From positions 1 to 51,038 of the forward strand of contig JAWBOW010000003.1 in assembly GCA_038825775.1 (NCBI GenBank): a stretch of 51,038 nt of DNA. The letters are read 5' to 3'. The position numbers and the translations under genes are program-made. The DNA comes from Candidatus Woesearchaeota archaeon (GTDB lineage: Archaea; Nanobdellota; Nanobdellia; Woesearchaeales; WAPY01). Numbering within the stretch: position 1 is the first letter of the stretch; every line of letters starts with the position of its first letter. Below, in pieces: positions 41,314-50,336 of this stretch. The notes below the pieces were generated by a model. It saw only the letters and a list, made by a program, of their open reading frames with translations, was not told the DNA's origin and ran no database searches.

Positions 41314-41583
41314 TTACTTTTCCCTTAAAACCAAGTTTTCGTATGCCTTGTTCAAAAGAGCCACCAAGTAAGGTATGTCTCTTATTTTATACGAGTTTGT
41401 GTTCTTCCAAGTTCCGTCCTTTGCTTTATAAATTCTTTGTGCAGTTATTGTTTTATACGATTTTTCTTCTCCATTTTTGTTTGTTGTTTTGTTATTCCAT
41501 ATTGTTACTTCAATACTTCCTGCTCTTAGTTTTGTTTCTGGTTTTATATTATTTTGTGGTTTTTGTAGTTCAGCATTCTTCAT
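41314..41583 (-). CDS. Small basic protein, possible PC4/Whirly-like ssDNA-binding protein
   Basis: GGAGG RBS; G.I...IW.N, R.YK.KDG.WK.TNS....DIP.L; between RPA and radA. Fold call is inference. Confidence 0.6.
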   Translation of the reverse strand: MKNAELQKPQNNIKPETKLRAGSIEVTIWNNKTTNKNGEEKSYKTITAQRIYKAKDGTWKNTNSYKIRDIPYLVALLNKAYENLVLREK

Positions 41584-41754: not shown

Positions 41755-42873
41755 TTAAAACTCTTCAAAATAATCCTCTTCAAAAGAAGGCTCTTCAGAT
41801 TCTTTATTGTTTATGTTATTTGAGCTTTTCTTATCAAGATTTGTTTCTTGTTCATCTTCAAAGAATTCTTCTTCAACAGGTGGCAAGCTTTCAACATCCC
41901 TCTTCAGTCTTTCCACCTCACTCTTATAATCAGGAAATTCTATTTTGTCTGCTATGAATTCTATCCTTCCAAACATTTTGTTTAGTGTTGCTCTCCCACT
42001 AATTAAGATTTCTGTTCCTAAGAGTTCTCTTCTTATTTCCTCAAATTTTTCAGTATTATCTTTTAACAGAGAAAGTTCTTCTTCACTCTTGTTTAAAAGT
42101 TTTAGGACTTGTTCTTTAAAGCACACTGTTCTAATTATTCCTGTTCCATCATCAACTAAAAGATTTATTACATATGCTTCTTGTGGTTTGACCTTTCCAT
42201 GCTGTTCGCAAACCATTCCTACTTCTGACAAGGAAAGCTTTTTACCACATTCCGGACAAACATGGTAGAATTTTGGTTCAAACGCTTGCACTATTGTTGC
42301 TCTTAACTCAACATCCCTGTCGTTTTCTGATAACTCAGATATTGTTTTTCTTTTGGGCTCGTATTTTGCTTCTTCAACCTTTTCATCAGGAGGGTTTATT
42401 ATTATTTTTGACCTTTCATTTAGGTGTATTTCCTTTGAATTATTATTATCTCTTACATAACCTGCTTTTATTTTTATTATATCCCCAATCTTTATTTTTG
42501 AGGCCTGTTCTGCTATTTCATTCCAAAGAACTACCCTTATTGCTCCTGTTTCGTCAGCAATGACTAAAGAAGCCAATTTTCCTTCCCTATTTTGAGTTGA
42601 AAACGGCTTAACTCCAAAGTTTTGTTTTACTATTCCAACTGTTTCAACATCCCTCATTCCAGAAAGAATATTTTTTATCTTTAATTTTCCAGTGAAACTA
42701 TTAAACAAAGGCACACCTAATTCGTTTGCAACTATTCTCGCAGCTCCTTCTCTTGTTATCAAGCCAGAGAGCTGCTTTACTTTCTTGTTTATCATTTCAT
42801 TTATTGCTTCTTCATTATAACTTGTCTTTTCTTTTATTTTTTGAATAATCTCTTCTATAGTTATTTTAATCAT
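41755..42873 (-). CDS. rpa: Replication protein A (OB folds + Zn finger)
   Basis: GLIT.EGA..IVA.ELGV, ADETG.IRVVLW, CPEC..(13)..CEQH, DDGTG.IR; acidic tail. Confidence 0.9.
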   Translation of the reverse strand: MIKITIEEIIQKIKEKTSYNEEAINEMINKKVKQLSGLITREGAARIVANELGVPLFNSFTGKLKIKNILSGMRDVETVGIVKQNFGVKPFSTQNREGKLASLVIADETGAIRVVLWNEIAEQASKIKIGDIIKIKAGYVRDNNNSKEIHLNERSKIIINPPDEKVEEAKYEPKRKTISELSENDRDVELRATIVQAFEPKFYHVCPECGKKLSLSEVGMVCEQHGKVKPQEAYVINLLVDDGTGIIRTVCFKEQVLKLLNKSEEELSLLKDNTEKFEEIRRELLGTEILISGRATLNKMFGRIEFIADKIEFPDYKSEVERLKRDVESLPPVEEEFFEDEQETNLDKKSSNNINNKESEEPSFEEDYFEEF

Positions 42874-42919: not shown

Positions 42920-44581
42920 TTAGTTTATTCTTATTGCAAATCTAATATTATTTATGCAGACAGGATAAATATTTTTCTTAAGTGTGCATTGGTTAAAATT
43001 CTTTTTAATTTCATCCTTATATCTTGGGTTTACAATATAAACTGAGTTTTCATGCTTGAATAATACTATTTCCAAGTTTGTGCTTAATGCCTTTGCAGGT
43101 ATTTTTTGAAATTCTATTTTTTTAATTGTTCCGTCTTTATTATAGTTTAATCTTATTACAAAATTGTTCTCTTCTTCAATAAAACCATTATTTTCGAAAC
43201 CTAATATTTTTATTAAATCAAAATAATCCTTAAGCCCAATTTCTCCTAAATTAGTTGCAATTAGCATTCTTCCAGAGTTAGAATCTCTTATAAAAGAGAT
43301 CTCGTAATTACCGTTAAAATCAATTTTTGAGATTTTTGTAAGATCAACAGAACAATAACAATCATTATCCAAAGTTGCGTTGCAATAGTTTATTGTCTTT
43401 AATACTTCATAGAATGGCTTTTCAAAATCTTCGTAACAATCCTCATTATAACCAATGCTTGAAAGTTTTGAATTGTAGCATTCCTCTTTGTTTGTTGAAA
43501 TTTTGCATTCTTCAACAATATTTTTTATTGTTAAATACAACTTTTCATACTGTTCTAAATTTAATTCTGCTTGTGTGCTAAAAGATAAGTTTGTTAAGTA
43601 TTGTGTTTCTCCACAACTCTGCTTTTTTTGGTCTCTAACTTCAACTTCCAAACCTTGATAATAACAAAGTGGGTTTACTTGTTGATTATTTATTCTTATC
43701 TCAAAGTGAAGGTGGGGGGAAGTTGAGCTTCCAGAACTTCCCATTATTCCGATAACGTCCCCTTGATTTACAATTTGCCCCTCGTCAACATTAACTTTTT
43801 CTAAATGAGCGTATAGGGTTTTTAGGTTTCCGTGATTTATTAAAACATAATTTCCATAGAAACTCCCACAATTGAAACAACTATCGTCTGATTTATCTGT
43901 ATTGGAGTTATAATAGCAATTAGAACAACCCTTGTTTACTAGTTCAACTCTTCCTGATTTTACTGCATAAATCTCTTTTGTGTCAGAATCAATGTCTATT
44001 CCCTTATGAAAATGTTGTTTTTTTGTTATTGGATGAATTCTCTGTCCAAAAGAACTTGCTACAGAGTATTTTCCACTAAAAGTTCCTGTTGGCCAAATCA
44101 AATCTTGAGGTGTTGAACTTCCTGACAACAAAATCGTATTTTTTAATAATATTCCATTAATAATTGTAGAATCTGTTTTTGGAATTATTTCTATTTTGTA
44201 TTCTTTAGGTATGTATTCTTCACTTCTATCTAAATATTCTATTAGTTCGTTATAAAATATTTTTGAAAATTCTTTTTTAAAATCAGGTTTGTTTTCTGTC
44301 CAATCTGCCAGTCCTAGTATTCTTTTAGGATTTTCAAAACCACCATTTTTTAAGAATGTTTTTACAGAATCATTTGCAGCACACTTTGCTGATTGTTGAA
44401 CATAAAAATGTAATTTTTCTCCTTCTTGGTATGTTTGGAATAACGACAATGCTTGCGAACCAATAACTAAGTTTCCAAGGTTTTTGTCTTTCATCTTAAC
44501 AACCACAAATAAGAATATTAAGAAAACTACAAAGAACACATACAACAATGCTGAAAAATACATTGAACCCCTTTTTTTCAT
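42920..44581 (-). CDS. Membrane-anchored protein with internal M23 metallopeptidase domain
   Basis: MKKRG + hydrophobic helix; SSFGQRIHPI, HKGID (HxxxD), YGNYVLINH, LYAHL, G.SG.STSPHLHFEIR (HxH), VNP. Confidence 0.9.
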   Translation of the reverse strand: MKKRGSMYFSALLYVFFVVFLIFLFVVVKMKDKNLGNLVIGSQALSLFQTYQEGEKLHFYVQQSAKCAANDSVKTFLKNGGFENPKRILGLADWTENKPDFKKEFSKIFYNELIEYLDRSEEYIPKEYKIEIIPKTDSTIINGILLKNTILLSGSSTPQDLIWPTGTFSGKYSVASSFGQRIHPITKKQHFHKGIDIDSDTKEIYAVKSGRVELVNKGCSNCYYNSNTDKSDDSCFNCGSFYGNYVLINHGNLKTLYAHLEKVNVDEGQIVNQGDVIGIMGSSGSSTSPHLHFEIRINNQQVNPLCYYQGLEVEVRDQKKQSCGETQYLTNLSFSTQAELNLEQYEKLYLTIKNIVEECKISTNKEECYNSKLSSIGYNEDCYEDFEKPFYEVLKTINYCNATLDNDCYCSVDLTKISKIDFNGNYEISFIRDSNSGRMLIATNLGEIGLKDYFDLIKILGFENNGFIEEENNFVIRLNYNKDGTIKKIEFQKIPAKALSTNLEIVLFKHENSVYIVNPRYKDEIKKNFNQCTLKKNIYPVCINNIRFAIRIN

Positions 44582-49700: not shown

Positions 49701-50336
49701 ATGAAAAAGAACTTTTTAAACAAAAAACAATTATTAATTAAAACTTCATTATTTTTAACCGCTTTAATTTTCATAATAATTTTATTATTATCAAATTTTT
49801 TTATTTTTTATTATTTAGAGTTGGCAAAATCATCAAAATCTAAAAACGAATTGTTAAAAAATGTTTTCCATTTTTTAGAAAGTAAGGAAAATTTGAGTAG
49901 TGCATTCTCTGAAAGAGAAGTGCTTCATCTAAATGATGTCAAAAATTTAGTCAATGCTGCAAAAATTTTTTTTGTTTTAATAATTACACTTGAATTGTCC
50001 TTGTTTTTATGCATTAAAAGATTAAAAGGATTTAATTCCAATATATTTATAGAAAATTTTATCTATTTTTTATTTGTAATTGCTTTTATAATTTTAATCT
50101 TGATTCTATTTATAAATAAAAATTTTTATTCTGCATTTTACATATTTCATTCGTTATTTTTTAAGCCGGACACTTGGATTTTTAATAATGATGATTTAAT
50201 TATAATACTATTTCCTGAGTACTATTTTAAGTTACTTGGATTAAAAATATTTGGATTATTATTTTTAGAAATAATTTTTACTATAATAATATTGTTTATG
50301 ATTAAATCTTTTAGTTCTAAAAGAAAAAATATTTAA
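49701..50336 (+). CDS. Integral membrane protein (DUF1461-like)
   Basis: FSERE..HL.DVK.L, F..FH.LFF....W.F...D.II.LFPE. Confidence 0.75.
   Translation: MKKNFLNKKQLLIKTSLFLTALIFIIILLLSNFFIFYYLELAKSSKSKNELLKNVFHFLESKENLSSAFSEREVLHLNDVKNLVNAAKIFFVLIITLELSLFLCIKRLKGFNSNIFIENFIYFLFVIAFIILILILFINKNFYSAFYIFHSLFFKPDTWIFNNDDLIIILFPEYYFKLLGLKIFGLLFLEIIFTIIILFMIKSFSSKRKNI

Follow-up and report, generated by a model that had tools for sequence, protein, structure and literature searches.

A pilin-like scaffold protein of Woesearchaeales archaea with an exchangeable slot for peptidoglycan-acting domains

The 51,038-nucleotide stretch at the start of contig JAWBOW010000003.1 (assembly GCA_038825775.1) of a Candidatus Woesearchaeota archaeon, hereafter the window, contains on its minus strand a gene for a modular pilin-like protein of 553 amino acids (aa) in which a Peptidase_M23 domain is inserted into a scaffold. 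Our computational analysis of this gene shows that the scaffold is widespread in the order Woesearchaeales and that the place of the M23 domain is taken in related proteins by other domains that act on peptidoglycan. The features of the gene and of its conserved neighbor are as follows.

42920–44581, minus strand: modular pilin-like protein gene with M23 inserted in the scaffold (open reading frame (ORF) of 553 aa; Pfam; AlphaFold2)
44567–44581, minus strand: leader MKKRG, with a predicted prepilin-peptidase cut after G5 (leader conservation)
44348–44569, minus strand: predicted long first helix, aa 5–78, with a break at 36–41 and hydrophobic at about aa 10–28 (AlphaFold2, H5–35 and H42–78)
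44123–44581, minus strand: N-terminal half of the scaffold, aa 1–153, an unnamed single-copy family (profile A1; no Pfam family)
43607–44122, minus strand: cargo slot, about aa 154–325, holding M23 here, 3–40 aa in cargo-less homologues and other hydrolases elsewhere (homologue comparison)
43670–44011, minus strand: Peptidase_M23 core, aa 191–304 (PF01551, E 4.8e-28)
43994–44008, minus strand: HxxxD zinc motif, H192 and D196 (sequence)
43868–43927, minus strand: four-cysteine loop insert, C219, C222, C235 and C238 (sequence; gap versus Csd1)
43706–43714, minus strand: HxH motif, H290 and H292 (sequence)
42923–43606, minus strand: C-terminal half of the scaffold, aa 326–553, a strand returning from the slot followed by an eight-cysteine helical and beta extension (alignment; AlphaFold2)
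41755–42873, minus strand: RPA (single-stranded DNA (ssDNA)-binding protein) gene, the conserved downstream neighbor (Pfam; 63 of 82 loci)

The PF01551 match of the protein scores 97.6 bits against a cut-off of 28.7 and is its sole Pfam domain above the cut-off. An earlier reading of the window made from its letters alone (the sequence-only reading) had placed here an M23 domain with intact HxxxD and HxH zinc ligands and a cysteine-rich loop, and these claims are borne out, with the Pfam core lying inside the span that it gave. The two motifs and an additional histidine are those of active M23 enzymes (PMC9662197; statements on this and the other papers cited here refer to the parts of their text that were available), and by the criteria of that paper the active-site set is complete, as the extra catalytic histidine was found at H259, in a YAH motif about 30 residues N-terminal of HxH. 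The loop is likewise a true insert, since CSNC (219–222) and CFNC (235–238) lie within 19 residues that are absent from Csd1 of Helicobacter pylori, and many of the order's M23 domains have comparable cysteine loops. The M23 fold gave 66 Foldseek matches at E ≤ 0.001, the top one being ShyA (3.3e-10). The best matches by sequence and fold are M23B DD-endopeptidases, namely Csd1 (PDB 5J1L), NMB0315 (3SLU), ShyA (6U2A) and MepM, the first three of which are the best solved relatives, and all have the same zinc and catalytic residues. In contrast to the archaeal protein, however, these enzymes remodel their own cell's wall and have other flanking domains, and the four-cysteine loop is a feature of the archaeal domain. 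In addition, equivalog status with MepM, ShyA or Csd1 failed, as 14 of 14 NCBIfam matches were far under their cut-offs (MepM, 74 of 341 bits). On its sequence, the inserted domain is thus a predicted metallo-endopeptidase with an intact site, whose closest solved relatives are DD-endopeptidases.

The scaffold that surrounds this domain has an architecture of its own. The AlphaFold2 model, based on a 94-row alignment, has a mean predicted local distance difference test (pLDDT) score of 89 and a predicted template modeling (pTM) score of 0.81, and runs from the helix (5–35 and 42–78) to an antiparallel sheet, the M23 domain and the returning strand, so that a 74-residue N-terminal helix is predicted to protrude from an alpha/beta head. 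A modeled cargo-less homologue has the same layout, with a helix at H7–79. Where the cargo is missing, the N-terminal half ends in a strand that reaches the 'Y.I.PSF' strand at the start of the C-terminal half within 3–40 residues, which identifies the M23 domain as an insertion between two strands. The description of the scaffold as cysteine-rich holds for its C-terminal half, whose eight cysteines are invariant across 12 aligned rows, but not for the N-terminal half, which has a single cysteine. Neither flank matches Pfam, and matching bacterial proteins align only over the M23 part, 22–41% of the protein, which sets the flanks apart from ordinary bacterial M23 proteins. When 41 related genomes were searched, the first 150 and the last 230 residues found matches in proteins with other middles, and full-length orthologues with 68% and 45% identity were found in two other genomes.

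Profile A1, built from 16 rows of the N-terminal half, had matches in 321 of the 401 genomes sampled from the order, nearly always one per genome; that tally takes in 12 unpublished genomes on which our other claims do not rest, and among its high-quality genomes it is 228 of 281. Matches were also obtained in 1825 clusters at 50% identity, and the median length of the orthologous scaffold proteins was 493 aa. The scaffold is therefore a near-core, single-copy gene of the order. This distribution bears on the possibility that an ordinary bacterial M23 gene had reached the assembly through contamination or very recent transfer, for which the 38–48% identity of the domain to bacterial M23 domains might be cited. 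However, the contig, from a genome of 0.92 Mb with 29% guanine plus cytosine (GC) that is 93% complete, carries archaeal RadA, RPA and ribosomal S2 genes, and the GC of the M23 domain (0.31–0.33) lies inside the local range of 0.24–0.36. In addition, a quick tree of 92 M23 domains, which was built on a short alignment, placed the domain together with 30 others of the order in a 31-domain group with no database match inside it (Shimodaira–Hasegawa-like approximate likelihood ratio test (SH-aLRT), 96). A bacterial origin of this kind is hardly tenable, and a chimera, a contaminant or a bacterial gene was ruled out by the orthologues, the order-wide scaffold and the M23 tree.

To characterize the contents of the slot we compiled a census of 100 loci in 73 families. 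They were chosen by hand among the 150 A1 rows with the best scores and hence form a non-random sample, and 93 of them had enough sequence past the N-terminal half to scan. A peptidoglycan-acting Pfam domain was found in 56 of the 100 orthologues at E ≤ 1e-5, representing eight families: M23 (28), SLT (17), M15/VanY (5), Amidase_2 (4), NlpC/P60 (2), and 3D, M74 and GH73 (1 each), with some proteins having two. One further locus had only a C39-like domain, and 10 more loci were gained when 30 unassigned parts were rescanned at E ≤ 0.005. Another 20 loci with lower scores, also chosen by hand, had such cargo in 11 cases at E ≤ 1e-4 and added no new family. In about a quarter of the loci the C-terminal half is a separate downstream gene, and peptidoglycan-type domains were found in 11 of 39 next genes scanned, adding GH25, Amidase_3 and polysaccharide deacetylase to the repertoire. 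Cargo varies even inside families f16, f53 and f90, the last of which has M23, M74 and SLT plus M15. The cargo folds are unrelated and have their substrate alone in common. These results substantiate the suggestion that the scaffold carries swappable effector domains. Neither the near-core scale of the scaffold, nor its operon, nor the degeneration of some slot M23 domains described below, had been part of the sequence-only reading.

Homologues from other orders of the class suggest how this arrangement arose. All 20 that were listed as matches, in a search in which another 20 genomes did not match, are short, at 143–288 aa, and have no Pfam match, and they keep the operon. Since all 20 are short and empty, the empty scaffold is likely the ancestral form, with cargo loaded within the order Woesearchaeales. 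By the quick tree described above, the slot M23 domains need at least two origins.

Wall-related enzymes were also observed on other proteins. At three loci, large multi-enzyme proteins lie directly after the scaffold gene (L196:3–3836, minus strand; L157:5299–8820, plus strand; L156:5442–8408, plus strand) and combine GH3, metallophosphoesterase, NAGPA, deacetylase, VanY, amidase and GDSL domains. On contig C32 of the source genome (L164:6518–8671, plus strand) an unrelated membrane chassis with several N-terminal helices and an extensive extracellular part terminates in a Cys-loop M23 domain that is a close relative (48% over 140 aa). The tail of this chassis is M23 in the source genome (G000) and in G001, G002 and G027, SLT in G012 and G015, and an unnamed domain in G003–G005; its gene lies between a pilin-like gene upstream and two lipoprotein-like genes downstream.

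The N-terminus of the scaffold protein had been compared to a class III, or prepilin, signal. The leader itself is real, as 77 of 95 orthologues have [KR][KR][GA] immediately ahead of their first membrane helix, a motif so placed in none of 49 polytopic proteins of the source genome and in 16 of its 97 proteins with one or two helices. KK[GA] followed by a membrane helix is present in 88 of the 95 and glycine or alanine occupies the predicted cut site in 86–88, and the query has the basic leader, starting with MKKRG and continuing into a hydrophobic helix. Pilus genes were recovered in part: contig C11 of the source genome encodes a PF00437 pilus ATPase and two PF00482 platform proteins, beside further pilin-like genes. 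More clusters with class III-like leaders, some of whose proteins are large and Cys-rich, were observed on contigs C9, C11, C16, C24 and C48 (L165–L167), the one on C11 adjoining the ATPase and platform genes.

The genetic context of the scaffold also speaks for a pilin. It is normally the last and largest of five or six pilin-like genes in a run that ends at RPA, three to five small genes with like leaders lying upstream, and the two nearest of these are directly upstream in 82 of the 91 loci with enough upstream DNA. By a local profile, 49 of 80 third pilin-like genes have an Amidase_3-like tail, in most cases with no clear ligands; examples are L077:5464–6054 (minus strand), L093:1004–1630 (plus), L100:2197–2838 (plus) and L130:2382–2993 (plus). 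Occasionally the remaining operon genes bear 3D, M15_4, C39-like, GDSL or DUF2272 domains. The family to which the source genome belongs, f1, has a broken operon in which the scaffold remains beside RPA in five of five relatives while the other four genes stay together elsewhere, in the source genome at contig C52:2436–4532 (minus strand, L163). In the f1 genomes G000–G002 the scaffold carries an intact M23 domain and the third pilin is a bare 134 aa, whereas in G003–G005 the scaffold M23 domain is degenerate and an intact one is fused to the third pilin (L231:2549–3484, minus strand; L233:100–978, plus; L234:93–962, plus), with the result that exactly one intact M23 domain is found among these pilins in all six f1 genomes.

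On its sequence and its model the scaffold protein is likely a type IV pilin of the modular minor kind, and its predicted anatomy is that of a modular tip pilin such as GspK. The reading to which we lean, if only slightly, is that it serves as a modular minor pilin at the tip of a type IV pilus, from which the M23 domain cuts bacterial peptidoglycan on contact for attachment and feeding. A prepilin peptidase would cut after G5, and the long first helix would then pack with the proteins encoded by the four or five pilin-like genes that normally come before it (those on contig C52 in the present genome) into a complex that would initiate a pilus, with the ATPase and platform proteins of contig C11 as its assembly machinery. 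The bulky cargo would force a position at the tip, as in GspK, ComZ and PilB. On contact with a bacterium, the M23 domain would cut peptide cross-links, which would anchor the archaeal cell and breach the wall so that it could feed, and the exchange of cargo would track the wall chemistries of hosts or prey. From this we infer, as had been proposed from the sequence, a bacterial host or prey.

Several results weigh against this reading. The strict FlaFind pattern fits 32 of the 95 orthologues and fails in the query (KRG|SM, with serine at +1), so that the prepilin-like N-terminus stands as a conserved leader and not as a strict match. The scaffold has no pilin signature in Pfam or NCBIfam; the C52 pilin-like proteins match no Pfam or NCBIfam model either, which indicates that these libraries cover the lineage poorly. 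With the cargo-less model P0236 a Foldseek search of the PDB gave no match at E ≤ 0.001, and a wide PDB fold search (VIA) with the cargo-less model reached a best Z of 6.0, to unrelated chains and no pilins. Pilus display draws on the conserved leader, the pilin-like operon, the long predicted helix and the pilus machinery, while the fold searches speak neither for nor against it. No prepilin peptidase was found in the 93%-complete assembly by Pfam, motif scan or tblastn, although one is present in four of four family relatives. Regarding the cargo, the slot is empty (no match at E ≤ 1e-5) in 15 of the 100 census loci, and a few cargos are not wall-directed (metallophosphoesterase, TSP3, TPM, GDSL and fn3). 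Among 30 slot M23 domains, classified by eye and by pattern, 18 have HxxxD and HxH and three have HxxxD and HxD, but one is partial and eight are degenerate, lacking zinc ligands. In f1 the scaffold gene lies apart from the remaining pilin-like genes, and the complementarity of its M23 domains may represent one or two events only. In addition, an order-wide compensation of empty slots by intact third-pilin amidases was not found, as five of five intact-looking tails were in cargo-bearing loci.

A profile search of solved structures with alignment A6 returned no match, and in a profile comparison of the scaffold with the adjacent pilin-like family the leader alone matched. In favor of a pilin, the nearest bacterial Atlas models are TadE, DUF4845 and Tad proteins, with template modeling (TM) scores by target of 0.58–0.72 that are under the bar for naming. 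That no pilin fold match was obtained fits the alternative of a membrane-anchored surface enzyme that digests the peptidoglycan of dead bacteria as food, with neither a pilus nor a living host, as does the fact that a basic leader and one helix, left uncleaved, give the same outside topology. This alternative is also in keeping with the second, non-pilin membrane chassis described above, which bears the same kinds of cargo, and with the use of necromass proposed for relatives (PMC11537232). We nevertheless consider it unlikely, given the conservation of glycine or alanine at the predicted cut site, the length of the predicted helix, and a five- or six-gene operon with like leaders that is retained even when the slot is empty.

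The degenerate M23 domains, which are kept despite their decay, raise a different alternative, that of a pilus-tip adhesin whose hydrolase folds mainly bind peptidoglycan and for which cutting is optional. Similarly, 44 of the 49 amidase-like tails of the third pilin fail a two-motif test for intact ligands, and a Pfam scan found no dedicated wall-binding domain in the query. Yet most slot M23 domains keep their ligands and the query keeps all five active-site residues, decay in the f1 slot is accompanied by an intact M23 domain on the third pilin, and neither census set yielded a known pure binding domain (LysM or PG_binding_1, for example) as cargo. An adhesin of this kind is therefore quite improbable in our view.

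Immediately downstream, RPA is the next labeled gene and has the same orientation in 63 of 82 loci (16 of 20 in other orders), with radA located 1.2 kb beyond it, and it is RPA with which the scaffold gene stayed when the f1 operon broke. These associations could reflect a DNA-uptake pilus, in which the enzyme breaks walls to release or reach DNA that is then bound by the co-encoded RPA. However, RPA is an essential housekeeping gene that may merely mark a conserved chromosomal site, and DNA uptake differs from contact-dependent attachment and feeding in purpose more than in mechanism; we regard it as very unlikely. Every alternative but the contaminant still points at bacterial walls as the target. 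RNA run X1 matches the RPA gene over 250 nt with full identity and leaves the scaffold gene uncovered except for a 55-nt piece of another organism's sequence. Between RPA and radA an 89-aa ORF without a Pfam match (41314–41583, minus strand) resembles by eye a small ssDNA-binding protein. Elsewhere in the window, at 49701–50336 (plus strand), there is a Pfam match to Lit, the bacterial lipoprotein intramolecular transacylase (E 6e-16), and in locus L106 an Lgt gene follows the scaffold.

Modular minor pilins have been described in bacteria, including GspK of the type II secretion system (T2SS), ComZ of Thermus, and PilB and PilC of Streptococcus sanguinis (PMC8179133). The scaffold protein resembles these in its class III-type leader, the length of its first helix, a beta-sheet onto or into which an extra domain has been added, its place as the largest gene of a minor-pilin cluster, its predicted tip position, and a 'carrier plus effector' design. 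It differs from them in being archaeal, in having no detectable sequence or fold match to them, and in having as cargos peptidoglycan hydrolases of many unrelated folds. The modules in that paper are for adhesion and for glycan and DNA binding, with one peptidase signature, and the words 'peptidoglycan' and 'archaea' do not occur in its available text.

Archaeal peptidoglycan hydrolases are also known. Woldo of Halogranum salarium combines M23 with PG_binding_1, and Nanoarchaeota were reported to be rich in peptidoglycan hydrolases (PMC12352652). Woldo and the present protein share an archaeal M23 domain with an intact site, a presumed bacterial target and domain shuffling, but Woldo is secreted and patchily distributed, whereas the scaffold is a near-core, single-copy carrier borne by the membrane or a pilus. 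The screen in that paper demanded a catalytic and a wall-binding Pfam domain, and its available text does not contain 'pilin'; since the query has M23 only, it falls outside that definition of a modular hydrolase. Large lytic-transglycosylase proteins of Woese- and Pacearchaeota (fam00969; length 1947 aa; in 81% of Pacearchaeota; PMC8204110) and GH23 in 'vampiristic' Woesearchaeota (PMC9723730) are likewise extracellular wall-degrading domains of the same lineage that were read as signs of bacterial hosts. Compared to fam00969, the scaffold is much shorter at its median length, and it is cargo-less in other orders. Pili or pilins are not mentioned in the available text of either paper. In that of PMC11537232, Woesearchaeota were linked to bacterial hosts on account of their lytic transglycosylases, again without reference to pili, and the available text of an archaeal pilus survey (PMC4858521) has no mention of Woesearchaeota. 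Some of the GH23 counts in PMC9723730 and PMC8204110 may be SLT-bearing scaffold members, and the unannotated one-helix families of PMC8204110 (e.g., fam00299) could include the scaffold undescribed. Our literature search, outside which most subscription papers fell, found no pilin-like protein described as a carrier of exchangeable wall hydrolases. The scaffold thus joins two known kinds of protein, modular pilins and archaeal wall hydrolases, in a combination that is real and widespread and apparently undescribed.

Woesearchaeota are widespread but are not known to have a cultured pair of archaeon and host. A near-core surface protein with mostly wall-cutting cargo makes the question of their hosts directly testable, and the specificity of its cargo domains on defined peptidoglycan types can guide host enrichment and imaging. 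Bacterial hosts have so far been suggested for these archaea only via scattered transglycosylase genes (PMC8204110, PMC9723730). Screens that require a wall-binding domain undercount archaeal hydrolases, as M23 was reported in four Nanoarchaeia genomes in the available text of PMC12352652 compared to the 28 of 100 orthologues found here, and the scaffold family is a source of new lytic enzymes. In a broader view that we hold only tentatively, rating it somewhat below even, the Woesearchaeales are epibionts or predators of bacteria in which an ancestral, cargo-less minor-pilin complex was turned into a pilus-tip weapon with a plug-in slot whose wall-cutting enzymes are exchanged, like the tips of polymorphic toxins, to suit the wall chemistry of the host. 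If true, this would be the first contact-dependent anti-bacterial apparatus of an archaeon, and the cargo would predict the host of each lineage.
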